DNA from: a virus
Taxonomy: Duplodnaviria > Heunggongvirae > Uroviricota > Caudoviricetes
DNA length: 15,769 nt
Virus record (IMG/VR): IMGVR_UViG_2675903658_000005
Direction: 5' to 3' (one strand)
Shown here: piece after piece, positions 2,223-15,769 of the stretch
How the letters are laid out: every line of letters starts with the position of its first letter
Position numbering within the stretch: the first letter of the stretch is position 1
The notes under the pieces: model-generated
What the model was told of the DNA's origin: nothing
Seen by the model: the letters and a program-made list of their open reading frames with translations, nothing else
Database searches by the model: none
Translations under genes and position numbers: made by a program

Positions 2223-3707
2223 ATGCGAAAAATAATTACTCATTTCAAAGTTGTTTTAACGTTACTTCTACCAGTAACCGTATCTGCCCAGCAGATACAG
2301 TGGCAATCCTGTATGGCCAGTCAATTCAACCACTGGTTTGGTGAGGAAAAACCGTCTCCTGACTTACTATGTGGTTATTTGTCTGTTCCATTAAAATATA
2401 CAGACACAGGCGGAGATGCTTCTTATGAAAAAAAATCACAAGTCAAACTAGCGTTGACAAAATTGCCGGCAAAAAGCAAGCATAAAGGAAGTATCCTGAT
2501 AATAAGTGGTGGTCCCGGGTTACCAGGCATAAATCCTTATATTAACTTTGACTGGCCAGTCACAAATCTTCGTGAGTCATGGGATATTATTGGATTTGAT
2601 CCTCGAGGCGTCGGACAGTCCACTCCGACAATAAACTGCCGGCAATCAGATACAGAGACTCAGGAAAACATAACCGAAAAGCAACAAGTATTAAATAAAA
2701 TTAATGCCTGTATCCATAATACCGGAGCCGAAGTCATTCGCCATATCGGCTCTAACGAGGCTGTATACGATATTGATCGTATTAGGCAAGCCTTGGGGGA
2801 TAAACAACTGACAGCCGTGGCGTATTCGTATGGAACTCAAATTGCAGCCTTATATGCAGAACGTTTTCCCTACAACGTAAGATCTATCGTTCTTGATGGA
2901 GTCGTCGATATCGATGACCTGGAGGACAACTTCACATGGCAACTCAAACAGGCACAGAGTTATCAGGAAACGTTTGATCGCTTTGCATCCTGGTGTGCGC
3001 GTACAAAAAGTTGCCCGCTTTCTTCAGACAGAGATAAGGCAATAACTCAGTTCCATGAGCTATTATCAAAATTACATCACAAACCTTTATTAGACAGTAA
3101 GGGAGAAAATATATCTTCAGATGAACTCATATCATTAACAACAGACCTTCTGCTATGGCGTTCATCATGGCCAACCCTTGCAACTGCCATACGCCAGTTC
3201 TCTCAGGGGATTGTCAGTAATGAAATTGAAACTGCGCTCAGTGCTCCGATAGCCTCAGAAGAGTCAAGCGATGCTTCGGGGGTAATCCTTTGTGTAGATC
3301 AGGGGGATGAGCAATTAACACCAGAAGAGCGAAAATCCCGAAAAGACGCTCTTGCGAATGCCTTCCCGGCTATTAACTTTGACAATGGACGTTCCGATTC
3401 ACCTGATTTTTGTGAATTATGGCCAATACATAGCGACCTGAACAAAACTCGCCTGAAAAATACTGTTCTGCCCTCTGGTTTACTGTTTGTAGCACACAAA
3501 TACGACCCAACAACGCCCTGGATTAATGCCCGTAAGATGGCAGAGAAATTTTCCAGCCCGTTACTAACAATAAATGGTGATGGGCATACATTAGCTCTCA
3601 CCGGAGTTAATTTATGTGTAGATAAAGCAGTTGTACATCACCTGATCACTCCACAAAAAATAGAAAATATATACTGCCCAGGAAATTCTGAAGCAGAAAT
3701 ACAATAA
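2223..3707 (+). CDS. Secreted alpha/beta-hydrolase, tripeptidyl-aminopeptidase (TAP)-like peptidase S33 family (putative)
   Basis: 494-aa ORF with N-terminal signal peptide (MRKIITHFKVVLTLLLPVTVSA-QQ). GGPG motif (ILIISGGPGLPG) and nucleophile-elbow-like motif AYSYGTQ as in TAP/prolyl-aminopeptidase-type hydrolases; several Cys suggest a periplasmic/secreted disulfide protein. Family assignment is from motifs only. Confidence 0.62.
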   Translation: MRKIITHFKVVLTLLLPVTVSAQQIQWQSCMASQFNHWFGEEKPSPDLLCGYLSVPLKYTDTGGDASYEKKSQVKLALTKLPAKSKHKGSILIISGGPGLPGINPYINFDWPVTNLRESWDIIGFDPRGVGQSTPTINCRQSDTETQENITEKQQVLNKINACIHNTGAEVIRHIGSNEAVYDIDRIRQALGDKQLTAVAYSYGTQIAALYAERFPYNVRSIVLDGVVDIDDLEDNFTWQLKQAQSYQETFDRFASWCARTKSCPLSSDRDKAITQFHELLSKLHHKPLLDSKGENISSDELISLTTDLLLWRSSWPTLATAIRQFSQGIVSNEIETALSAPIASEESSDASGVILCVDQGDEQLTPEERKSRKDALANAFPAINFDNGRSDSPDFCELWPIHSDLNKTRLKNTVLPSGLLFVAHKYDPTTPWINARKMAEKFSSPLLTINGDGHTLALTGVNLCVDKAVVHHLITPQKIENIYCPGNSEAEIQ

Positions 3708-3890: not shown

Positions 3891-4196
3891 TCAATATACA
3901 TTTTGCACCTTCGATATAGTAATGGCCGTTACTGTAATATGAGTTACAAACAGCTTCATACCCAGAGCTACTGATGTATCAACACGATTCAACAATACCC
4001 GATATTTATTCCATGCCTCCAGCAACGATCTTTCTTCCTCCGTTGCGATTTCCAGATCTACAGCATCCTGCAGTGGCGCAATATACTCACTGAATTCCTG
4101 GATGTAGAACTGTGTGGTGACGGTCTTCCAGCCATTCGGCTCCTGCTGTATCGAAGCATACCAGGCTATTTCAATATCGCTATGCTGCGGCAGCAT
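3891..4196 (-). pseudogene. Tail fiber assembly protein (Tfa) family remnant, tfaX-like, with altered C-terminus
   Basis: 101-aa ORF containing the conserved Tfa C-terminal core ([38 protein letters not shown]), but the N-terminal ~40 aa and the last ~25 aa do not match canonical Tfa (normally ~190 aa ending ...TAPDIEWP). Looks like a recombination relic, as in DLP12 tfaX. Confidence 0.6.
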
Positions 4197-4223
4197 TTAA
4201 CCCCTTGTAATTCATCGCCATAA

Positions 4224-4252
4224 TTGATTTAATTCACAAATAAAACTATAAT
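4224..4252 (+). promoter_or_regulatory. Predicted sigma70 promoter upstream of ybcY-like gene
   Basis: TTGATT (4224..4229), 17-bp spacer, perfect TATAAT (4247..4252); GGTGA Shine-Dalgarno and ATG at 4265 follow. Confidence 0.5.
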
Positions 4253-4264
4253 ACGGTGAAACTA

Positions 4265-4920
4265 ATGAAAAAAACACAGATGATGGGGCTAAAATTTACA
4301 CACCACTTACCCTAAAGCTTTATGACTGGTGGGTTTTGGGAGTATCAAATCGGCTTGCATGGGGATGTCCTACAAAGGAACACCTTCTTCCACACTTTCT
4401 GGAACATTTAGGTAACAACCATCTGGATATTGGCGTTGGAACTGGGTTTTACCTTACTCACGTACCTGAGAGCAGTCTGATATCTTTAATGGATTTGAAC
4501 GAAGCTAGCCTGAACGCGGCATCGACAAGGGCTGGGGAATCAAAAATTAAACATAAAATTAGCCATGATGTTTTTGAACCTTATCCCGCGGCGTTACATG
4601 GTCAATTTGATTCCATTTCCATGTTTTACCTTCTTCACTGCCTGCCTGGAAATATATCTACAAAAAGCTGTGTAATACGCAATGCGGCGCAGGCCTTAAC
4701 TGACGATGGAACTCTATACGGAGCCACAATTCTTGGCGATGGAGTTGTGCACAATAGCTTCGGTCAAAAACTGATGCGCATTTACAATCAGAAAGGCATC
4801 TTTTCAAACACAAAAGATTCCGAAGAAGGCTTAACACATATACTCTCAGAGCATTTCGAGAATGTTAAAACCAAGGTTCAAGGTACTGTAGTAATGTTTT
4901 CCGCTTCAGGGAAAAAATAG
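4265..4920 (+). pseudogene. ybcY: YbcY-like SAM-dependent methyltransferase, frameshifted in an A7 tract near the 5' end
   Basis: ATG 4265 with promoter and SD opens a frame that stops after 16 codons. The long frame (ORF track 4336..4920, motif I LDIGVGTGFYL) is open back to 4228 but is one base out of phase. Adding one A to the A7 run 4268..4274 restores a continuous ~219-aa protein (MKKNTDDGAKIYTPLTLKLYDWWVLGVSNRLAWGC...). ybcY is also a pseudogene in E. coli K-12 DLP12, from memory. Confidence 0.65.
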
Positions 4921-4927
4921 CATCCAA

Positions 4928-4960
4928 CCGCAGCACGTTCTTGCTTAAGACGTGCTGCGG
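4928..4960. terminator. Strong hairpin between convergent ybcY and tfa relic (possible bidirectional terminator)
   Basis: ccgcagcacg (4928..4937) pairs with cgtgctgcgg (4951..4960); inner tctt/aaga extends the stem to ~14 bp with a 4-nt loop. A T-run follows on the minus strand only after ~11 nt and no clear U-tract on plus, so terminator function is uncertain. Confidence 0.4.
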
Positions 4961-4974
4961 CATAATCCCAATGA

Positions 4975-5104
4975 TTACTCCCTGACAGGGTTCGTAGGCC
5001 ACTCAATATCAGGTGCAGTTGATGTATCAACACGGTTCAGCAACACCCTGCATGCCTTCCATGCCGCCAGCAATGATGTTTCCTCCTTCGTTGCATATAC
5101 TGCT
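4975..5104 (-). pseudogene. Tail fiber assembly (Tfa) 3'-terminal relic, tfaD-like
   Basis: Minus-strand translation gives ...[36 protein letters not shown], the canonical Tfa C-terminus, with an in-frame stop immediately upstream. Only ~40 codons remain and there is no start codon. Confidence 0.6.
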
Positions 5105-5112
5105 CACCTTTT

Positions 5113-5406
5113 TCACCCACGATTAACCAACAGCCAGACCAGCAGACACGCCACCACCGGCACAGCAAAATCCATCAGGCTTGCCACATCCCATGCACGT
5201 GGATCAAAACCGCCCCACCACGGCATGTTAATCCGCTTGCCATGCCCGAACATTTCAATCCAGCGATATTCTGCCTGGGTGTGTTCACGCGCAATGAAGA
5301 ACGTACAACCGGCTATCGCCCCGTAAGCCCAGTTTCCGGTAAAAAGACCAGCCAGTACCTGCACCGCCACGGCACAAAGCGCATGAAGTATCGACGTGAT
5401 ATCCAT
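5113..5406 (-). CDS. Small predicted two-helix membrane protein, unknown function
   Basis: 97-aa ORF; two hydrophobic segments (ILHALCAVAVQVLAGLFTGNWAYGAIAGCTFF and FAVPVVACLLVWLLVNRG) flank a Trp/Gly-rich loop (INMPWWGGFDPRAW). GGGGAG SD 3-4 nt before the ATG; start is 9 bp downstream of orf92 stop. No family recognised. Confidence 0.55.
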   Translation of the reverse strand: MDITSILHALCAVAVQVLAGLFTGNWAYGAIAGCTFFIAREHTQAEYRWIEMFGHGKRINMPWWGGFDPRAWDVASLMDFAVPVVACLLVWLLVNRG

Positions 5407-5415
5407 CTGCTCCCC

Positions 5416-5694
5416 TTAAAACCACTCCCTTAGCGGGCGCTCTGGTGTAACCACCCACTCACGGAACACGGATTCATCAAAGCCATCGTCAAGAAGACGA
5501 ATATTAACAAAGTACCCTTCGTCTCGCGTGTATTCAGGCTCCCCGTCAGCAGAAACACCTGACTCACTGAACGTAAAACCAATCTCATCAACCAGAACGG
5601 CATTCTGCAGCTCTTCGTCCTCTTCCCAGTTAAGTTTCCTGAGAAATGCCCTGAAATCTGCTTTATCACTGAAACGCAACGTGAAATCTCTCAC
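5416..5694 (-). CDS. Small acidic protein, unknown function (translationally coupled to stf)
   Basis: 92-aa ORF; 23 Asp/Glu vs 11 Arg/Lys. GTG start overlaps the stf stop as GTGA (5694..5691). Not a canonical Tfa. No family recognised. Confidence 0.5.
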   Translation of the reverse strand: MRDFTLRFSDKADFRAFLRKLNWEEDEELQNAVLVDEIGFTFSESGVSADGEPEYTRDEGYFVNIRLLDDGFDESVFREWVVTPERPLREWF

Positions 5695-7754
5695 TCCACA
5701 ACCTCCCCAAGCTGCGCATCTGTTAGCTCTTTATGCCAGAGACGAAAATTCCTCACATGCCCAAATAAATGGCGTAATCCTGCTGTAGTTTGTCCACCAA
5801 TGCGAATGGTTGCTGTACTCCGGATATATTCCCATTTGGTTTTAGTTTCGCTGCTTAACTTACCGTTACTGACTACACATGTGGACCGTTCGGACTTTAC
5901 CCGCATACCAATAAGCATTTTTTCCAGCCCGGCATTTTCATTTATTCGTCGGTCTGAACCACCTATATCACAATACGGAAAACCGTCGTACCCACCTGAT
6001 GAACCAAACCCCATTACGATCCCCGCATCTGCCTGATGCCGGTATGTGTCAAAAACACGCGGTGCTGCATTTGGCGTTTTATACCAGTTCTTATGTACCT
6101 CACAAAGAACCGTAAAAGGAAGATTATAAAGATTATTCTTAATCGGAACTGTAACCATATCGCTTGCCCGCGTTACCGGTGCCGTCCCCGTAACAATAAA
6201 AGATGATGCGCCTGTACCAGCCTCAATCTGTGGAGTGGTTACATCGAGATAATCCCCTGATGCAACCATCTGCCCTGTATCCGGAGAATACTGGACAAAA
6301 CCACCAACCGTATTTTCTGTTGTATCTGCTTTTAATGTAGCCTCAAAAAATATCCAGCCAGTTGCATCATCCTTAACAGACCTTGCTGTAACACGGCTTG
6401 TCTGACCTGTCTTGCTAATTATGCGGGTGGTAAGGTTCAGGTTTGCTGCTCCTATTGATGTCCTTACCTCCCCATCATAATGTTCAAATAAAATACGAAC
6501 GGCGATATTATCAACTTCACTTTTTACCCGACAGGATATAGTTACATGCTTTTCGTCCCCTGAAGTATCAACCCCTCCGGTACTCGAATACAGTCCGATA
6601 ATGGTATGCGCTTTACTTGTACCAACAATCGAATCCTGTACGACAAACCGGCCATAATTAAACCCGAAACTATCTGTGCCTGTTTCTGTAACGTCCAGTG
6701 AAGTTGACTTATTCCACTTCGAAGGGTCTGTACTGTTCGGGAAGAAGTTCGTTCTTTGCCCCTCAATAAGCAGGCCATCACACTCAAATCGTGGCTCATT
6801 AATTTCCGCCGTTTTCAGTTCGCCAGATTTGTTGATATATGTTGCCGTTGATGCGCGACTGAAATTAACCTGTTTATCACTGGCAACCTGAACCACATTA
6901 TCACCAATCTTCACTTTTTTATAACCCGGAGAATAGCCCGTAATCATATCCAGCGAATCATTAAAGGGTATCCACACATCCGGCAGCGGCTGTAAAACAT
7001 ATCTGTACGGCTCTGCTGTCTGGTTTGCGTATTCTCTGGCAGCATCTTCACTTGCTTTTGCTGCCGTCTGGCTTGCTGCCGATGCTTTCGCCGAGTTCGC
7101 CGCCGCTGTTTCGCTCACCTTTGCGTTGGCTTCACTGTCTTTGGCATTCGTCTCACTGGTTTTCGCTGCCGTCTGGCTGGATTTTGCGTTTTTTTCGCTG
7201 GCCTTTGTGGCTGTCTCGCTATTTTTCGCGCTGGTTTCTGATTTTTTGGCTGCTGTCGCGGAGTTTGCCGATGCAGTCTGCGAGGCCGCTGCCGCCTGTG
7301 CGCTGTTAGCTGCATTCGTTTCTGAGGTTTTCGCCGCGTTCTTCGATGATGCCGCTGCAGTTTCGGATTTCTTTGCTGCCGCTGCGCTCTGTGATGATGC
7401 TCCGGCATGACGTGCCACTTCATTCACCATCAGCTCAAAACGGCGCAGTGCCTCCGGCATGACATCATCTTCCGTCATGGCGCCGAGAAAATCATTCAGC
7501 GTACCTGGTCTGGAACCTTCATAGACGGTAATGGTCCCGGCATGTGAAGGCGGAAAATCTTCAACCAGCAGGGTGACGCTGTACTGGCCATACTCAACAT
7601 CCATGCTGTAACGCCCGGCTTCATCCGGATTTTCAGAGGCCACCGTGTTCACCACCACCGTGCTGCTGGTCCGTCTGGCCTTCAGCACAATGGTGCAGTT
7701 CTGTACTGGTTTTCCTGTGCCATCTTTAAGCACGCCAGAAATTTTTACTGTCAT
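5691..7754 (-). CDS. stf: Side tail fiber protein (Stf) with conserved lambda-type N-terminus and divergent C-terminal receptor-binding region
   Basis: 687-aa ORF. N-terminal ~110 aa match the lambda Stf N-terminus as recalled (MxVKISGVLKDGTGKPVQNCTI...YSMDVEYGQYSV...FPPSHAGTITVYE...[14 protein letters not shown]). Central Ala/Ser/Thr-rich heptad-like repeats. C-terminus ends GLRHLFGHVRNFRLWHKELTDAQLGEVVE, resembling the C-terminal signature of concanavalin A-like lectin/LamG-type domains (inference). SD GGTGGA before ATG 7754. Confidence 0.85.
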   Translation of the reverse strand: MTVKISGVLKDGTGKPVQNCTIVLKARRTSSTVVVNTVASENPDEAGRYSMDVEYGQYSVTLLVEDFPPSHAGTITVYEGSRPGTLNDFLGAMTEDDVMPEALRRFELMVNEVARHAGASSQSAAAAKKSETAAASSKNAAKTSETNAANSAQAAAASQTASANSATAAKKSETSAKNSETATKASEKNAKSSQTAAKTSETNAKDSEANAKVSETAAANSAKASAASQTAAKASEDAAREYANQTAEPYRYVLQPLPDVWIPFNDSLDMITGYSPGYKKVKIGDNVVQVASDKQVNFSRASTATYINKSGELKTAEINEPRFECDGLLIEGQRTNFFPNSTDPSKWNKSTSLDVTETGTDSFGFNYGRFVVQDSIVGTSKAHTIIGLYSSTGGVDTSGDEKHVTISCRVKSEVDNIAVRILFEHYDGEVRTSIGAANLNLTTRIISKTGQTSRVTARSVKDDATGWIFFEATLKADTTENTVGGFVQYSPDTGQMVASGDYLDVTTPQIEAGTGASSFIVTGTAPVTRASDMVTVPIKNNLYNLPFTVLCEVHKNWYKTPNAAPRVFDTYRHQADAGIVMGFGSSGGYDGFPYCDIGGSDRRINENAGLEKMLIGMRVKSERSTCVVSNGKLSSETKTKWEYIRSTATIRIGGQTTAGLRHLFGHVRNFRLWHKELTDAQLGEVVE
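7019..7412 (-). repeat. In-frame heptad-like Ala/Ser/Thr-rich tandem repeats inside stf
   Basis: Protein region ...AAKTSETNAANSA...KKSETSAKNSETATKASEKNAKSSQTAAKTSETNAKDSEANAKVSETAAANSAKASAAS...; the DNA shows ~21-bp imperfect periodicity. This low-complexity stretch generates spurious overlapping ORFs in other frames (7025..7309, 7115..7423, 7126..7410). Confidence 0.7.
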
Positions 7755-7765
7755 ACTTTTCCACC

Positions 7766-7801
7766 AATAAAAAAAGCCCGCAGCAGTGACGCCACGGGCT
7801 T
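7766..7801 (-). terminator. Intrinsic terminator downstream of lom (copy 1), 11 nt upstream of stf start
   Basis: On the minus strand: stem aagcccg / cgggctt (plus coords 7774..7780 and 7795..7801) with ~14-nt loop capable of extra pairing, followed by TTTTTTTATT (plus 7766..7775). Confidence 0.5.
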
Positions 7802-7905
7802 CAGGACAGTGTAACTTTACGTTTCCTCAAACGCAGTTCACCCCATAAGGCGGATGAACCTGCGTATCATAACAATATTTACAGAAGATAAATCGGCGTC
7901 TGTTG

Positions 7906-8505
7906 TCAGAAACGGTATCCGATACCAACAATAAATGCATCCGTTCGCCAGTCGCCACTGCCGGAGCCTTCATAAGCAATATCAATGGCCACGGATTCGG
8001 TCGGGTTAAACTGCACGCCAGCTCCCCACGCCAGAGAGGTATTGCTGTGGCGACCGTCATCACTTCCGGTCAGCACGTCGTGCATTTTCCCCTTGTTGTC
8101 AGTTACGCGGAGATAATCCCCGGAGAAAGTCGACACACGGCTGTAAGCCACACCTGCCATCGCATAAGCACTGAACCATTCATTCACGCGCACAGACGGC
8201 CCCGCCATTACGCTGAACCAGCGGTTACGCACGGAATCTTCATGCCAGCGGGTATCGCTGTAATGCGTTTTTTGCTCATCTTTGGCATTGGCATAACTGA
8301 ATGACGTCACCAGCCCCAGCGTGTCCGTAAACTCATAACGGTATTTCACGTTAATCCCGTTCAGATCATCGCTGCCAGGCATATCAGTATGGGTCTGAAG
8401 ATACCCGGCGCTTAGTGTGGACTGATGCTCTGCTGCGCTCGCTGGCGTACCAGCGGCAACCAGCCAGACTACTGCGGACAGAATAACAGCACATAATTTA
8501 CGCAT
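7906..8505 (-). CDS. lom: Lom outer membrane protein (Ail/Lom family), copy 1
   Basis: 199-aa ORF with signal peptide; strongly similar to phage lambda Lom as recalled (EHQSTLSAGYL...NGINVKYRYEFTDTLGLVTSFSYA...WHEDSVRNRWFSVMAGPSVRVNEWFSAYAMAGVAYSRVSTFSGDY...). SD AGAGG upstream of ATG 8505. Confidence 0.9.
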   Translation of the reverse strand: MRKLCAVILSAVVWLVAAGTPASAAEHQSTLSAGYLQTHTDMPGSDDLNGINVKYRYEFTDTLGLVTSFSYANAKDEQKTHYSDTRWHEDSVRNRWFSVMAGPSVRVNEWFSAYAMAGVAYSRVSTFSGDYLRVTDNKGKMHDVLTGSDDGRHSNTSLAWGAGVQFNPTESVAIDIAYEGSGSGDWRTDAFIVGIGYRF

Positions 8506-8526
8506 AATTACCTCTCGCTTTTCTGC

Positions 8527-8553
8527 AATAAAAAAGGCGCCATTTCTGGCGCC
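8527..8553 (-). terminator. Intrinsic terminator upstream of lom copy 1 (duplicate of the J terminator)
   Basis: Duplicate of 9758..9784: stem ggcgcca / tggcgcc with 4-nt loop followed on the minus strand by TTTTTTATT. Confidence 0.5.
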
Positions 8554-8572
8554 CGTATTGGGGTTATAAAAT

Positions 8573-8695
8573 TCAGCTAATCGTGATGCCTGCAGTGGCT
8601 TTCTTCATCACAACAACCAGCAAATCGCTGATACTTGCTGTGGGATACCAGCCATTTACCCACCATGCTGATACAGAAAACTCCAGCGTCATGTG
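8573..8695 (-). other. Relic of the J 3' end (last 41 codons) created by the tandem duplication
   Basis: Identical to 9804..9926, the last 123 bp of J. No start codon, out of frame with the upstream stf fragment. Confidence 0.7.
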
Positions 8696-8985
8696 ACATC
8701 TTCCGTCATGGCGCCGAGAAAATCATTCAGCGTACCTGGTCTGGAACCTTCATAGACGGTAATGGTCCCGGCATGTGAAGGCGGAAAATCTTCAACCAGC
8801 AGGGTGACGCTGTACTGGCCATACTCAACATCCATGCTGTAACGCCCGGCTTCATCCGGATTTTCAGAGGCCACCGTGTTCACCACCACCGTGCTGCTGG
8901 TCCGTCTGGCCTTCAGCACAATGGTGCAGTTCTGTACTGGTTTTCCTGTGCCATCTTTAAGCACGCCAGAAATTTTTACTGTCAT
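8689..8985 (-). pseudogene. Truncated duplicate of the stf 5' end (97 codons, then VT-stop)
   Basis: 8697..8985 is identical to 7466..7754; the ORF diverges at the duplication junction (...GAMTED-VT* vs ...GAMTEDDVMPEA in full-length stf). Confidence 0.8.
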
Positions 8986-8996
8986 ACTTTTCCACC

Positions 8997-9032
8997 AATA
9001 AAAAAAGCCCGCAGCAGTGACGCCACGGGCTT
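8997..9032 (-). terminator. Intrinsic terminator downstream of lom (copy 2)
   Basis: Identical to 7766..7801 (offset 1231). Confidence 0.5.
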
Positions 9033-9136
9033 CAGGACAGTGTAACTTTACGTTTCCTCAAACGCAGTTCACCCCATAAGGCGGATGAACCTGCGTATCA
9101 TAACAATATTTACAGAAGATAAATCGGCGTCTGTTG

Positions 9137-9736
9137 TCAGAAACGGTATCCGATACCAACAATAAATGCATCCGTTCGCCAGTCGCCACTGCCGGAGCCT
9201 TCATAAGCAATATCAATGGCCACGGATTCGGTCGGGTTAAACTGCACGCCAGCTCCCCACGCCAGAGAGGTATTGCTGTGGCGACCGTCATCACTTCCGG
9301 TCAGCACGTCGTGCATTTTCCCCTTGTTGTCAGTTACGCGGAGATAATCCCCGGAGAAAGTCGACACACGGCTGTAAGCCACACCTGCCATCGCATAAGC
9401 ACTGAACCATTCATTCACGCGCACAGACGGCCCCGCCATTACGCTGAACCAGCGGTTACGCACGGAATCTTCATGCCAGCGGGTATCGCTGTAATGCGTT
9501 TTTTGCTCATCTTTGGCATTGGCATAACTGAATGACGTCACCAGCCCCAGCGTGTCCGTAAACTCATAACGGTATTTCACGTTAATCCCGTTCAGATCAT
9601 CGCTGCCAGGCATATCAGTATGGGTCTGAAGATACCCGGCGCTTAGTGTGGACTGATGCTCTGCTGCGCTCGCTGGCGTACCAGCGGCAACCAGCCAGAC
9701 TACTGCGGACAGAATAACAGCACATAATTTACGCAT
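9137..9736 (-). CDS. lom: Lom outer membrane protein (Ail/Lom family), copy 2
   Basis: 199-aa ORF, identical in translation to 7906..8505; in the position expected from lambda gene order (directly downstream of J). Confidence 0.9.
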   Translation of the reverse strand: MRKLCAVILSAVVWLVAAGTPASAAEHQSTLSAGYLQTHTDMPGSDDLNGINVKYRYEFTDTLGLVTSFSYANAKDEQKTHYSDTRWHEDSVRNRWFSVMAGPSVRVNEWFSAYAMAGVAYSRVSTFSGDYLRVTDNKGKMHDVLTGSDDGRHSNTSLAWGAGVQFNPTESVAIDIAYEGSGSGDWRTDAFIVGIGYRF

Positions 9737-9757
9737 AATTACCTCTCGCTTTTCTGC

Positions 9758-9784
9758 AATAAAAAAGGCGCCATTTCTGGCGCC
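9758..9784 (-). terminator. Intrinsic terminator between J and lom
   Basis: Minus strand: ggcgcca-gaaa-tggcgcc (plus 9767..9784) followed by TTTTTTATT (plus 9758..9766); 20 nt after the J stop, followed by the lom SD. Confidence 0.55.
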
Positions 9785-9803
9785 CGTATTGGGGTTATAA
9801 AAT

Positions 9804-12800
9804 TCAGCTAATCGTGATGCCTGCAGTGGCTTTCTTCATCACAACAACCAGCAAATCGCTGATACTTGCTGTGGGATACCAGCCATTTACCCACCATGCT
9901 GATACAGAAAACTCCAGCGTCATGTGGCCGCGACCAGCAGGCATATCAATAACACCACTGTAAACCAGCGTATTATCCATCGCGGTACGGTTATAAATTT
10001 CAGCACCGTTTTTCTTCACTATCAGGCGGCATGACGAATAAGTATCGCTGTTCTCCCGCTCATGTCTGGCACCGCTGAAAGCCACCGCCGGAATAACAAT
10101 CTGCCGGTTAAACGGCTGATCGTCATAAACCCTGACGGTAATGGTTCCTGATGGCCAACGCTTCGGTGCACGGGAGTCACGAGGGAAAGCCTTACCCACT
10201 GTTTTAACGAGATCGCCTTCAATCTGGTTTGCAGACAGTTTCCCTCTGATGACACAGTTCTCGTTAATGGTGACATTATTGAGCGTGCCGGTATTCGCCG
10301 TGATGGCTCCACTGATATCCGCATTGCGGGCTGTCAGCCTGCCATCCGGCGTCAGGGAAAACGTCGGAGGATTGCCGGATGACGTGATGCTCACCGCAAA
10401 CAGTCGCTTCAGGAACACGTCGTTCATGAACAGCTGATTCCCCTGCGCCACAAACAGCGGCGTGGTGTTGCCATTCTCCGGGGTAATCATCGCGATACGG
10501 TCAGCCTGCAGCAGAATACTGCTCAGCGTCTGACCATCAACATCCTCAATCCCCGCACCAATCCCGGCCACATAGGGAATACCGTTTTTTGTTTTCTGCA
10601 CCTTCAGCATATACATGGCATTCAGCTCATTGCGCGTGTCTGACTGAACCCGCTGGATTTGCTGTATGGTCACGGCCTGGTCACCCAGTTTTTTATCCGT
10701 GGTCGAGGTAATTTCACTCCCTTTTTTATCCACGTACTGGCGGACCTGTGCTATCTGTCGGGCATTTTCTGACTGCCCCTGGCTGACAGTCTGTGAGATT
10801 TCACTGCTCACCCGGTCCACTTTCTGGCTCACCTGCGCGATGGCCAGTGTCTGGTCCTCATTCTTTTTCGCAACCAGCTGCGTGAGGCTGTTTTCCGCCT
10901 CCCCGATTTTCCGGGTCACTTCTGCGATATCCGTGTCCATCCGCTGACGGATGTCTTCTTCCAGTTGCGTGACCTCCGTACGCAGCGCTGAAGCATCAAT
11001 GCGCTCTTTCAGTGCCTGGCCCAGAAGCGTCTCATCTATCAGCCCCCGGAAAATTTCCAGATACCCTTCACCATCATTGCTGGGCTGCCCGCTGGCTTCC
11101 ACAAAAGCAGATTTTCCCACCAGGTTGACGCTTCGCACGTAAAACCAGAAATCCGTCCCCGGCTTAATCCGGCTCCCCTGGACAGTCCACTGACTGCCGG
11201 TCCCCAGATAACGGGCAGATTTTTCCACCTGTGCCGTGTTCGTGATGCGTTTTTCTGAGAACCAGAATTCAAACTGTACCGTCGGGTCATACACCGCAAG
11301 ACGCGGGACCGCCGTTATCTGAAAATACCCCGGCGTCAGCTCAATGGTGGCGGGTTTTGCAGGCGCGTTAATCCGGAAGGTGGTGGTCGCAGGTTCGCCC
11401 TGCTGGCCGTAGCTGTTAATGGCCCGCACCGTCAGGGTGTATTCCCCCAGCGGCAGACCACTGAAACGGTGCTCCGTGTCTGCGGTGATGGCGGTGCTCA
11501 CCAGACGGCTGTCTTCTCCGCTTCCGCTGGTCAGACGCAGACTGAAGCGCACACCCTTCACCACCCGCGGCGTGTCCCATTTCGCCTGTGCCAGATACTG
11601 ACCGTCAGCTGCACTCACCTCCACCGTCAGGTGCTGCACTGCCGGTGGGATAACGCTGTTCAGGCTGCCTGACTGCGGCTCAAAGCTGGCCCCGTTATCC
11701 ACAATGGCTTCTTTTTCCGGTACGTGCTGCACCGCCGTGATGGCGAACGTGCCGTCCGTGTTTTCCCGAATGGAGACACAGCGGAACAGGCGACGACGCA
11801 GTGACGGCAGGGAGAGTCCCCACACACCGTATGTCTCCACACCATCCGGCAGGGTGCTGACCTGTATCCGGTCAGGCGCGGGGTGTGCGGTGATGGCCAC
11901 GCTCGCCGGCTTACCGCTGCCGTTAATCAGATTAACAGTGGCCGTGCCGGTCTCCGGCAGTGTCACCTCCCGGTCCAGCGTCAGGGTACGGCTGGCGGCA
12001 TCGATGGACAGGACACGTCCGCCGGTCATGGTCCCGGCATAGTCGTTATCACAGATTTCAATGATGTCACCGGGTGTGTGACGCAGCCCCTGTGACCCGA
12101 GCGTGAAATCCACCGTCTGCGTTTCCAGCAGTTCGGTCTTTATCACCCACAGCCCGGCACGGTGGGCCTGACCGCGGCTGGTACAGCCGAACGCGTCCAT
12201 CTTCAGCAGGTTGCGTCCGTAGCGCAGTATGGCTTCCGGGTCTTCCACCAGTTCCGTGGAGGTCTGCCAGCCGTTCTGCGGGTCGGTGTAATTCACCTCC
12301 ACTGCCGTGTGCCGGTCCTTCAGGGCACTGAAGCTGTAGCGGAAACCCACGCCGTTATCATCCACCACCACATCGCTGTTGGTGTACGGCCACACCACAT
12401 CCGACGGACGGTCCTGAACGAACGTCAGCGTCTGGCCGTTCCATACCGGCATACAGCGCATCGCAGAGCAGAAATCACTGAGAACGTCCCACGCCTTACG
12501 CTGTTGTGCCAGGTACGCATTAAAGGTCATCCGCGGCTCGGTCCCCCCGAAACCATCCGGGACCGTCTGGTCGCAGTACTGCCCGATGGCATACAGCGCC
12601 CACTTGTCCACATCCGCCGCCCCCAGACGTTTTCCCATGCCGTAGCGCGGGTGAGTCAGCATGTCCCACAGACACCAGGCCGGGTTGTTGCTGTATGCCG
12701 GTTTCAGGCTGCCGTCCCAGATACCACTGTACGTGCGTTTTTCCGGGTCATAGTTTGACGGCACCTGGATGATGCGACCGCGGATATGGTAGTTCACCGT

Positions 12801-13496
12801 CATCTGCTGGCCGCCGAACTGCTCCGCATCCACCTGCAGCCCCACAATGGCCGTGTTCGGGTAGCACTGTTTCACATCGATGATTTCGGTGTATGACGAC
12901 CACAGCGTCTTATTCTGCAGCTGGTCCGTGGTGCTGTCCGCCGTCTCCCTGACCATCCGGATGTTAAAGGGCCGGGGAGGCAGATTATCCAGAATCACCG
13001 AGGCCAGGAACTGCGAGGTGGTCTTGCCGTTAATGGTGACATCCTTTTCCGTCACCCAGCGGCCATTACGCTGTAACTGAATCAGAATCCGGACAGAGGA
13101 AGGATTACGGTCGCCCCTTGACGTGGTCTGCACCAGTGACTGCACCCCGAAGGTAACCCGCAGGCGGTCAATGTTCGCGGACGTAATGGTGCGCGTCACC
13201 GGTTTTGCCTTCGTCACTTCCACGCCCAGTCCGGTTTCAGCTCCGGAGGACTCAAAGCCTTCCGGTGGTGTCTGCTCCTGCTCCCCGGCACGCCAGACCG
13301 CGGTCACACCGTGTATCACGGGATTACCGTCCGTGTCCGTCAGCGGGGTTTTGTTCACCAGGATACTCTGCAGTCCCTTCACCGGACCTTCTATCGGTCC
13401 CTCACCAATCGCATCAATCACACTCATCATCTGCGTGGATTTGAGATTATCCTTCGCCTCACGAGGCGTGTGTGCCTTACCGCCACCTTTTCCCAT
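9804..13496 (-). CDS. J: Tail tip / host specificity protein J (central tail fiber)
   Basis: 1,230-aa ORF; N-terminal ~800 aa closely track lambda J as recalled (MGKG..[16 protein letters not shown]...[32 protein letters not shown]...[14 protein letters not shown]...). Carries a coiled-coil-like insertion and a divergent last ~200 aa relative to lambda. SD AGGGGAAGG before ATG 13496. Confidence 0.93.
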
Positions 13497-13599
13497 ACAG
13501 CCTTCCCCTGAATAAATTAACCGCCACTTGCCATTCCGTACAGAAGTCGGATATCCTTCGCCCGAAAAGCATGAAACACATTTCTGCCATGCTAAAGAG

Positions 13600-13637
13600 A
13601 AACCCCGGTATCAGCAGATACCGGGGTTTTCTTTCAT
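13600..13637. terminator. GC-rich hairpin with U-rich flanks on both strands in the I-J intergenic insertion (possible bidirectional terminator)
   Basis: Perfect inverted repeat aaaccccggtatc (13600..13612), loop agca, gataccggggttt (13617..13629). Plus strand is followed by tctttc; minus strand by tctctttagc. Confidence 0.5.
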
Positions 13638-13701
13638 GCCCACCGATAATCCTGTTGGTTAAAACCGGTAATGGCATAAAAATTCTGAATATCTTCACAT
13701 T

Positions 13702-13729
13702 TTCACAAAATCCCTGTGGCACTTATAAT
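13702..13729 (+). promoter_or_regulatory. Near-consensus sigma70 promoter on the strand antisense to the tail operon
   Basis: TTCACA (13702..13707), 16-bp spacer, perfect TATAAT (13724..13729); predicted start near 13736. Confidence 0.45.
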
Positions 13730-13735
13730 TTCTCT

Positions 13736-13827
13736 GCGTTAATTTTTTTTGTCGTGACATAAGAATAATTATCTATAGTTGATCTTCGTAACGCTCCCGC
13801 AGCTCCGCAACTCTGCGGGATTTTTTT
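13736..13827 (+). ncRNA. Candidate small RNA (~90 nt) between promoter 13702..13729 and terminator 13795..13827
   Basis: No ATG and no plausible ORF in the interval; 5' U8 tract (13742..13750), AU-rich body, 3' intrinsic terminator. Purely predicted from promoter/terminator geometry; no expression evidence. Confidence 0.3.
13795..13827 (+). terminator. Rho-independent terminator (plus strand)
   Basis: Stem tcccgcag (13795..13802) / ctgcggga (13813..13820), 10-nt loop, then TTTTTTT (13821..13827). The minus strand has no U-tract after the hairpin, so it is plus-oriented. Confidence 0.6.
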
Positions 13828-13834
13828 ATTCTTT

Positions 13835-14515
13835 TTACCCCTGCCGCCCGATAACCACGACCTTTCCGCCCCCGCCTTCATCACGGGTGCTGATGTCCTG
13901 GGATATACGGCGGGAGCCAACCAGCATTTCCCCGTAAGGCACCGGCATCGGGTTCCCCTGGGCAATCATGTTATCCAGCGAGGAAAAGTACGTGTTCTGT
14001 CTGCCGTTATCCGTTACGCGGTAATCCGGTGTTTTTGCCTTCGGGGCCAGCATCTGTGCCACACCGCCCAGTATCATGCTGGCCCCCAGTGAAAACAGCA
14101 TCGTGGTGGCAGAAAAACCACCGGCTGCCAGGGCTGAACCCCATAACGCCATCGAGGCACCGGCCGTGAAGAAAGAGCCCACGATGGCTGCCGCCCCCAG
14201 CACAATCTGCAGTCCGCCCTTTCCGGCTCCGGCCAGTCGCGGCACAATGTGGATGACCGTTCCCTCACCCAGCTGTTCGTGAAGACGGGCGTACACCGCC
14301 TCCGGTGCCGTGTCATCACCGGCAATACGTATCTGGTACCAGCCTTCGTTCATCTGACGGCGAAAGCCCGGCACCTGTAACGACAGGGCACGGATGGCTT
14401 CCGCTGCCGTGTTCACATACAGGCTGAGGCGGCGGCCAAATCGTTGCAAATCCCCGTGAAGGCAGATGCGTGCCAGTGGCGGTGACGCCAGACAGAATGC
14501 GTTCGTCGTTGCCAT
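13835..14515 (-). CDS. I: Tail tip assembly protein I
   Basis: 226-aa ORF closely matching lambda gpI as recalled (LASP..ARICLxGDLQRFGRR...AEAIRAL...GWYQxRIAG...IHIVPRxAGA...QIVLGAAAIxGSFFTAGA...FSLGASMxLGGVAQMLAPKA...NTYFSSLDNMxAQGN). Confidence 0.9.
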   Translation of the reverse strand: MATTNAFCLASPPLARICLHGDLQRFGRRLSLYVNTAAEAIRALSLQVPGFRRQMNEGWYQIRIAGDDTAPEAVYARLHEQLGEGTVIHIVPRLAGAGKGGLQIVLGAAAIVGSFFTAGASMALWGSALAAGGFSATTMLFSLGASMILGGVAQMLAPKAKTPDYRVTDNGRQNTYFSSLDNMIAQGNPMPVPYGEMLVGSRRISQDISTRDEGGGGKVVVIGRQG

Positions 14516-15156
14516 TTTTCGGAATACCTCTCCCGTTTACTCAGTTGTTCAGGCAGATGGTGAAGCAGCTCACCGTTGCCGCAGTAAATGGCGGCATGGT
14601 TCGGTACCGAAGCACCAAAGCAGCACAGCAGAATATCGCCCGCCTGTGCAGAGGACAGGGGCACCCGGTAAAAGCCGGTGACCGCCATATTGTCCAGGTA
14701 AAGGTTCTGACCGTTGCGCCACCAGTCATCCTCGCGATGAAAATCCGGCATTTCAGTCCCCGCCAGATGGTATGCATCCCGGAACAGGGTGTAACAGTCC
14801 GTCACCCCGTGCTCAAAGCGCCGTCCCGTCAGGTGCGGCACGCAGCGGAATTTGTGAATGTCACCCCGGCAGACCAGCCACCAGGGCAGTGCGCTCTTTA
14901 TCTGCAGCCGCCGGTCCGCCTCGCTCAGCCAGGGCAGACCACCGGGATGACTGTGGACCAGCGCCACAATCTCCCCCTGCATCTCTGCCCGCAGCCAGTC
15001 TTCCGGTGCGATACGAAAATACGCCTCCGGCTCTGCAGAAATATTCACACAAGGGATATACCACTCCCCCTCCGGCGTGCTTATCACGAAGCCGCACGCC
15101 TCCGCAGGCGCACACCGCCGGGCATGCGCCAGAATCGCTGATTCAGTCTGTGTCAT
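14413..15156 (-). CDS. K: Tail tip assembly protein K (JAB/MPN plus NlpC/P60 domains)
   Basis: Lambda gpK-like sequence starting at internal Met 15156 (MTQTESAILAHARRCAPAE...) of ORF 14413..15417; JAMM-type motif HSHPGG...SEAD and NlpC/P60-type Cys/His (DCYTLF, NHAAIY). The ORF-track N-terminal extension overlaps L and is rejected. The 3' end overlaps the I start by 103 bp in another frame. Confidence 0.85.
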   Translation of the reverse strand: MTQTESAILAHARRCAPAEACGFVISTPEGEWYIPCVNISAEPEAYFRIAPEDWLRAEMQGEIVALVHSHPGGLPWLSEADRRLQIKSALPWWLVCRGDIHKFRCVPHLTGRRFEHGVTDCYTLFRDAYHLAGTEMPDFHREDDWWRNGQNLYLDNMAVTGFYRVPLSSAQAGDILLCCFGASVPNHAAIYCGNGELLHHLPEQLSKRERYSEKWQRRTHSVWRHRHWHASAFTGICNDLAAASACM

Positions 15157-15166
15157 AAACCGGGAT

Positions 15167-15769
15167 TTACTGCGAAAGTTTATTAATGGAAAGGAAACCG
15201 CCAAAATTGCCGACATTCCTGCGCAGTTCACACCCGCGCATGCACTTGCTGCATCTGTCCTTACGGATATCCGTGGTGGGTTTATCGAACTCATCCGCCA
15301 CAGCCTCGCCCGTGTAACCACACTCATCAGAGCGGTAGGTCCACATACAGGTGTTCGCCAGCATGATACGACCGGGAAACAGCGCCCCGTCCGTCTCGGT
15401 CGGTGTGGCCAGCACAAACGAGGCCGTCATGGCTGTCAGCTGCGACATCTGCTCCACCACCCAGCGGTCACTCAACTCCTGCTCCGGGTCCGCCGCCGGA
15501 TTGCCCGCAACGAAATTCACCGCATCCAGAAAACGGGCATACACCCGGCGGCGGACCACCGTGGCCCCCACCAGACTCTGCAGGTCCTCCGCCACCCCGG
15601 TGACAAGGCCAAACAGATTGGACACCGTCAGCGACGGGCGGGCACTGCTGCCCCGGCCGTTCATCTCAAAGCCGCTGCCGTCAATCGGGTATGCCTCATA
15701 CTTACGCCCCTGCCAGGTGACCGGCTCCCCTTTTTCATTCAGCTCATTACAGAAAAAATACCGCTCACC
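15167..15769 (-). CDS. L: Minor tail protein L (partial; 5' end lies beyond the window)
   Basis: Frame is open to the window edge; translation (GERYFFCNELNEKGEPVTWQG...SSARPSLTVSNLFGLVTGVAEDLQSLVG...GNFGGFLSINKLSQ*) matches lambda gpL. The ORF-track Met at 15664 is internal. Confidence 0.85.
   Translation of the reverse strand, partial: GERYFFCNELNEKGEPVTWQGRKYEAYPIDGSGFEMNGRGSSARPSLTVSNLFGLVTGVAEDLQSLVGATVVRRRVYARFLDAVNFVAGNPAADPEQELSDRWVVEQMSQLTAMTASFVLATPTETDGALFPGRIMLANTCMWTYRSDECGYTGEAVADEFDKPTTDIRKDRCSKCMRGCELRRNVGNFGGFLSINKLSQ

Follow-up and report, generated by a model that had tools for sequence, protein, structure and literature searches.

In phage lambda and its relatives, the late segment J-lom-stf-tfa combines tail genes with lom, and the lambda-type examples known so far have one lom gene between J and stf; the lambda-like prophages of Escherichia coli KE51 show the same order and the same protein families (gpJ, Ail/Lom and Stf N-terminal). 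Tandem duplications with short junctions, which arise independently of homology, have been described in the chromosomes of Salmonella and E. coli. Here we analyze IMG/VR virus record IMGVR_UViG_2675903658_000005 (Caudoviricetes), a stretch of 15,769 nt that is referred to in its entirety as the window and that represents the right end of a lambda-like prophage adjoining ompT (1023-2036) and an alpha/beta hydrolase gene (2223-3707). Where the lambda-type examples have a single lom, the window carries the lom segment twice, together with a truncated stf gene (stf’) and a tail of J, an arrangement that we lean towards regarding as a genuine and very recent tandem duplication.

According to the Ur-lambda structure (Yu et al. 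2025, PMC12617516), residues 1-91 of the side tail fibre protein Stf constitute a collar domain and residues 92-101 a flexible linker, and twelve copies of the collar domain ring the gpV/gpM junction. Laboratory lambda has a frameshifted stf, and mass spectrometry detected no Stf in its virions (PMC10721106). Lom has been linked to the adhesion to epithelial cells (PMC3594210). A 2025 study (PMC12366544) further reported that over-expressed Lom provides a strong defence against lambda-vir, that Lom at prophage level is insufficient for this effect, and that the Lom level climbs strongly late in infection; since the anti-lambda effect is thus reported to depend on expression, a change in lom copy number could matter.

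Results

A scan of the whole window at period 1,231 returned a single run, in which 7466-8695 and 8697-9926 are identical in 1230 of 1230 nt (0 mismatches) and arranged directly head-to-tail; a repeat finder returned the same pair (Table 1). A perfect run of 1,230 nt cannot be a product of chance. The identity of these two segments had been noted in the original prediction, and its unit boundaries, from about codon 97 of stf through lom to 41 codons before the end of J, hold as well: at its stf end the unit takes in codons 1-96 of stf plus the first base of codon 97, and at its J end it starts 41 codons (the stop and the 40 sense codons preceding it) before the J end. The period of 1,231 bp given there is right as a spacing, but the unit itself measures 1,230 bp, and a single base, the A at 8696, lies between the copies. 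We describe the structure as a 1,230-bp duplication plus one filler base rather than as a clean 1,231-bp unit because this A differs from both outer flanks (T at 7465, G at 9927); BLAST alignments to the single-copy allele end at 8695 and restart at 8697. The same sequence is equally well described as a 1,234-bp duplication via a TG microhomology, followed by the loss of one CAT from the CATCAT that opens the second copy. Within 60 nt on either side of the breakpoints, the longest common stretch is the 7-nt CGTCATG, which the junction does not use, and the repeat finder detected no other long repeats flanking the unit in the window. A repeat-mediated (RecA-dependent) origin was rejected for this reason, CGTCATG being all that the breakpoints have in common.

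Table 1. Features of the duplicated J-lom-stf region (positions refer to the window; the order follows the plus strand).
Feature	Position	Strand	Remarks
stf, side tail fibre, 687 aa, intact	5691..7754	-	ORF list; Pfam phage_tail_N 1-131
duplication copy 1	7466..8695		stf codons 1-96, lom-stf spacer, lom, J-lom spacer, last 123 nt of J
terminator-like hairpin with T-run	7773..7802	-	3’ of lom copy 1, directly 5’ of stf start
lom copy 1, 199 aa, Ail/Lom outer-membrane beta-barrel	7906..8505	-	Pfam PF06316, PHROG 108, PDB 9wso
duplicated J terminator-like hairpin	8535..8554	-	
J 3’ relic	8573..8695	-	last 40 sense codons of J plus stop
stf’	8689..8985	-	96 native Stf codons, Val-Thr, stop; Pfam phage_tail_N 1-96
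junction filler base A	8696..8696		matches neither flank
junction k-mer			GTCATGTGACATCTTCC
duplication copy 2	8697..9926		identical to copy 1
terminator-like hairpin	9004..9033	-	3’ of lom copy 2
lom copy 2	9137..9736	-	identical to copy 1
terminator-like hairpin	9766..9785	-	3’ of J
J, tail tip/host specificity, 1230 aa, intact	9804..13496	-	Pfam gpJ domains; last 123 nt within copy 2

Deletion of 8696-9926 leaves 14,538 nt that are 100.000% identical, without any gap, to GCA_964052765.1 and GCA_964050755.1. Because the collapsed window matches existing assemblies exactly, we take the single-copy allele to be ancestral and the 1,231-nt insertion to be the sole difference. Over window positions 4534-13116, the collapsed window likewise matches both sibling prophages of KE51 without a difference, with collinear flanks, and the closest complete genomes derive from human isolates, urinary ones included (KE51, ABU 83972, HM670 and others). 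In KE51 as well as in GCA_014140565.1, the potB and ompT sites are each occupied by a lambdoid prophage, the two being siblings; those of KE51 do not differ from each other over a stretch of at least 10.5 kb that contains J-lom-stf. Such a pair within one genome offers a substrate for gene conversion and for rearrangements of the chromosome, and is an assembly hazard as well. In the window, a sharp mosaic boundary was seen at about 14554-15640: relative to KE51, 3 single-nucleotide polymorphisms in 4534-14553 are followed by a divergence of about 10% across the K/L tail genes, whereas GCA_964052765.1 and GCA_964050755.1 are identical to the window throughout, mosaic boundary included. This boundary indicates recombination among sibling prophages.

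No contiguous match to the junction was obtained among 5,426 complete E. coli genomes with a 301-nt junction query or a 3.6-kb query; here, the 100%-identical matches to window positions 6900-10500 (3,601-nt query) span 2,370 bp, that is, one unit. Searches of 50,697 phage records with queries of 301 nt and 3.6 kb retrieved the single-copy form only, the junction being absent. An exact junction 35-mer and a relaxed pattern that tolerates a filler of 0-12 nt were absent from the GTDB representative genomes, the JGI metagenomes and IMG/VR. An exact look-up of the stf’ product in 153 billion gene positions and 15 billion proteins gave no match. The exact J protein is recorded in 38 blocks of public assemblies; at its loci the called genes were J, one lom and a 687-aa stf in ten of the ten places listed, of 24 contigs read, and a string search for the junction over the exact-J-protein loci did not find it. 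The original prediction had left the choice between a very recent event and an assembly artefact, an assessment that stands in view of the exact match of the collapsed window to two assemblies and of a junction found in no other record.

A protein search with stf’ yielded mostly genes truncated by the end of a contig, along with products of decaying prophages. Among the proteins inspected, one of 130 aa from Shigella sonnei (P0090) joins Stf residues 1-76 in frame to about 54 C-terminal J residues; to judge from this composition, it appears to contain an stf-to-J junction of a type similar to that of the window, with other breakpoints. Another protein, which has Pfam matches to both Lom and Stf (P0078), was discarded as an instance of recurrence, as it stems from a frameshift-ridden assembly, and the ‘Lom (x2)’ of phage PhiR49_1 was rejected as a precedent, being a single lom split into two open reading frames (ORFs). 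Signs of selected amplification were likewise not found: there are two copies only, the relatives are single-copy, and variant junctions did not appear in the collections searched. We have no evidence that a duplication of lom recurs or is selected.

On the minus strand, the gene order is J, terminator, lom, terminator, stf’ (98 codons), J 3’ relic, terminator, lom, terminator and full stf, with lom bracketed by terminator-like hairpins as expected of a moron. Order and gene identities had been predicted in this form, and the Pfam matches for lom, stf’ and J agree with them. J, for which all gpJ Pfam domains are present, full-length stf and both lom copies are intact; although the breakpoints lie inside J and stf, one complete copy of either gene survives because the duplication is tandem. 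No gene was lost or inactivated, and the gain consists of one more lom, identical to the first, together with stf’ (98 codons) and the J relic (40 codons). The length of the full stf product equals that of WP_016238843.1, annotated in KE51 as ‘prophage tail fiber N-terminal domain-containing protein’. The portion of Stf encoded at 7033-7220 consists of degenerate 41-nt direct repeats (61-76% identical) that specify an Ala/Ser/Thr/Lys-rich shaft with SETAAK-like motifs.

For stf’, the predicted length of 97 codons has to be corrected to 98, since the 96 native codons are followed by Val-Thr contributed by the junction and then TGA; its start was rightly described as intact, the native start being kept along with the sequence upstream of it. 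An internal ATG of the J relic (8692-8690) overlaps the stf’ stop as ATGA, and translational coupling at this site could give rise to a 39-aa J-tail peptide. Residues 1-94 of stf’ align with residues 1-94 of the lambda Stf collar domain gpStfN (9E7M/9MGH) at 87% identity (82/94 by our count; E=6e-50 for 9e7m_Ta). Given that the alignment covers residues 1-94, with the collar domain ending at residue 91 and the linker spanning 92-101, stf’ amounts to a complete Stf collar domain that is severed in the linker. Across PHROG tail-fibre families that vary widely in length, exactly profile positions 1-96 are shared, and the breakpoint therefore happens to free a complete modular collar domain behind its native start. 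Compared with full Stf, stf’ lacks the trimeric shaft, which tethers three collar domains. A free stf’ collar domain could compete with full-length Stf for the collar sites; yet the virions of laboratory lambda, in which Stf went undetected, argue that untethered N-terminal fragments of Stf are not stably assembled.

Both lom copies match Pfam Ail_Lom (PF06316) over their full length (1-199/199, 427.5 bits at a cut-off of 23), which bears out the earlier assignment of Lom to the Ail/Lom family of outer membrane proteins; among structures, the matches were lambda Lom (PDB 9wso, E=3e-49) and OmpX and Ail (E about 1e-19). Neither a consensus scan nor a relaxed scan revealed a promoter-like site 5’ of lom inside the unit, so that a doubled expression of lom in the lysogen is not established, and as a transcript over both lom copies only the late, antiterminated one can be assumed. 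There was no Rfam match at the gathering threshold in the window, and none at E<=1 in 7400-10000. A small RNA (sRNA) in the duplicated spacers, considered as a further candidate, is unsupported in the light of this lack of Rfam matches, and the paper on Pas sRNAs has no bearing on this locus.

Elsewhere in the window, tail gene I and the start of J are separated on the minus strand by a 338-nt non-coding gap (13497-13834) that comprises an AT-rich stretch and then a strong hairpin with T-run (about 13632-13596, AAAACCCCGGTATCTGCTGATACCGGGGTTTCTCTTT). The gap has the look of a site that could accommodate a small moron or an sRNA; Rfam matches within it were sub-threshold only, and an 81-aa ORF at 13477-13722 had no PHROG match. 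A preprint describes the sRNA PasB as embedded in a phage structural operon. At 3891-5100, two tfa remnants flank a gene for a class I SAM methyltransferase (4336-4920): one is the ORF 3891-4196, and the other has a 75-nt stretch (5020-5094) with 81% identity to 3972-4046. Owing to a 1-nt indel at 4267, the methyltransferase gene is shorter than its counterpart in KE51, and it looks like a cargo gene that was inserted in tfa and is now decaying. Two small conserved phage ORFs downstream of stf (5113-5694, minus strand; 92 aa, PHROG 1361, and 97 aa, PHROG 1443) occupy the position expected of a tail-fibre chaperone.

Discussion

On balance, we favor, with a good deal of reserve, the view that the tandem duplication is genuine and very recent, that it affects the J-lom-stf segment of a lambda-like prophage adjacent to ompT, and that it is private to one isolate of a human-associated E. 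coli lineage. As far as can be told from the sequences compared, the event appears to be private and of an age below detection. Because its breakpoints offer no usable homology, we infer that it would have originated independently of RecA, through template switching during replication or illegitimate end joining that left behind the 1-nt filler. With the short-junction duplications of bacterial chromosomes it has in common the head-to-tail copies, a junction homology of 0-2 bp, intact genes at the edges and an expected RecA-dependent instability, whereas it differs from them in its very small unit (1.2 kb), in the filler base and in showing no sign of selection or of a higher copy number. The two lom copies, stf’ and the J relic would all be transcribed within the Q-antiterminated late operon, and the perfect 1.23-kb direct repeats are predicted to undergo RecA-dependent unequal exchange, with collapse to one copy and occasional expansion within a population. 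Such a duplication would most likely be neutral. Long reads or some other evidence for the junction presumably underlie the assembly, since short reads by themselves cannot resolve 1.23 kb repeated perfectly in tandem within a region that close relatives carry twice (at least 10.5 kb).

Several points weigh against a genuine duplication. The junction is known solely from assembled sequence and is present in one sequence only among all collections searched. At illegitimate junctions in E. coli, microhomology of a few bp is usual, and a filler base is less typical. In close relatives, for instance KE51, the region belongs to two sibling prophages that do not differ here over more than 10.5 kb, and repeats of this kind are places where contigs break and get re-joined. 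The same observations lend weight to an alternative that we hold to be tenable, if less probable, namely that the second copy is an artefact of assembly or post-assembly processing and that the true genome has one lom. Two contig ends (or the two ends of one circularised contig) with an overlap of about 1.2 kb may have been joined untrimmed, or a chimeric long read may have entered the consensus; polishing would then have made the copies identical, with one erroneous base staying at the false junction. An origin of this type would accommodate the zero divergence between the copies and the collapsed sequence being the exact allele of two other assemblies, as well as the uniqueness of the junction, the otherwise unexplained extra base, the lack of microhomology at the junction and a location that in close relatives falls within an intragenomic repeat of at least 10.5 kb, a kind of repeat in which assemblies tend to break. 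The window repeat resembles the untrimmed-overlap duplications of long-read assemblies in its perfect direct copies, its arbitrary junction, a possibly erroneous base at the join and its placement in a region repeated elsewhere in the genome; it is unlike them in that untrimmed overlaps are usually much longer and situated at contig ends. Artefacts of long reads are mostly inverted (foldback) chimeras or contig-end overlaps of many kb, for which a direct 1.23-kb repeat in mid-contig is atypical, and hybrid assemblers that start from short reads require real junction k-mers for such a loop. Moreover, the breakpoints coincide with no boundary of the sibling-prophage repeat. Sequence alone cannot separate a real duplication from such an artefact.

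If the duplication is real, it might have been retained by selection for Lom dosage, be it for the exclusion of lambda-like phages, for adhesion or for serum resistance in a clinical isolate, the free Stf collar domain being a side effect. The block of lambda-vir by over-expressed but not prophage-level Lom speaks for this notion, as does the link of Lom to epithelial adhesion. We nevertheless consider it improbable: there are only two copies, other genomes show neither recurrence nor independent junctions, the zero divergence gives no sign of persistence and, with no promoter-like site 5’ of lom in the unit, a twofold rise in the lysogen is not established. More doubtful still is a fully adaptive scenario in which the second lom would exclude lambdoid phages or aid adhesion, while the free 98-aa collar domain, encoded upstream of full-length stf with the same ribosome-binding site, would compete for the 12 collar positions and thereby alter the number of side fibres; if true, it would represent a natural dosage tuning of a prophage moron via an unstable tandem repeat. 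Finally, a conserved, functional two-lom architecture of a phage lineage, for which only the window itself would speak, is practically untenable and already refuted by the single lom in every relative examined, including the sequences that are 100% identical to the window outside the insertion.

Returning to the reading that we prefer and to its main competitor, the finding is an ordinary one in the sense that a single sequence shows known genes duplicated once in tandem, or else a mistake in assembly that mimics this, and not a new kind of genetic element; either way, no new system or mechanism is involved. Should the duplication turn out to be an artefact, it would illustrate that prophage regions occurring more than once in a genome call for validation at the level of reads. 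If it is real, a tandem duplication would have been caught at its origin, before any divergence. It would further mean that the copy number of a prophage cargo gene can change without harm to the adjoining essential tail genes, and it would provide a ready pair of one- and two-copy genotypes for testing how far the effect of Lom on incoming lambda-like phages depends on its dose.

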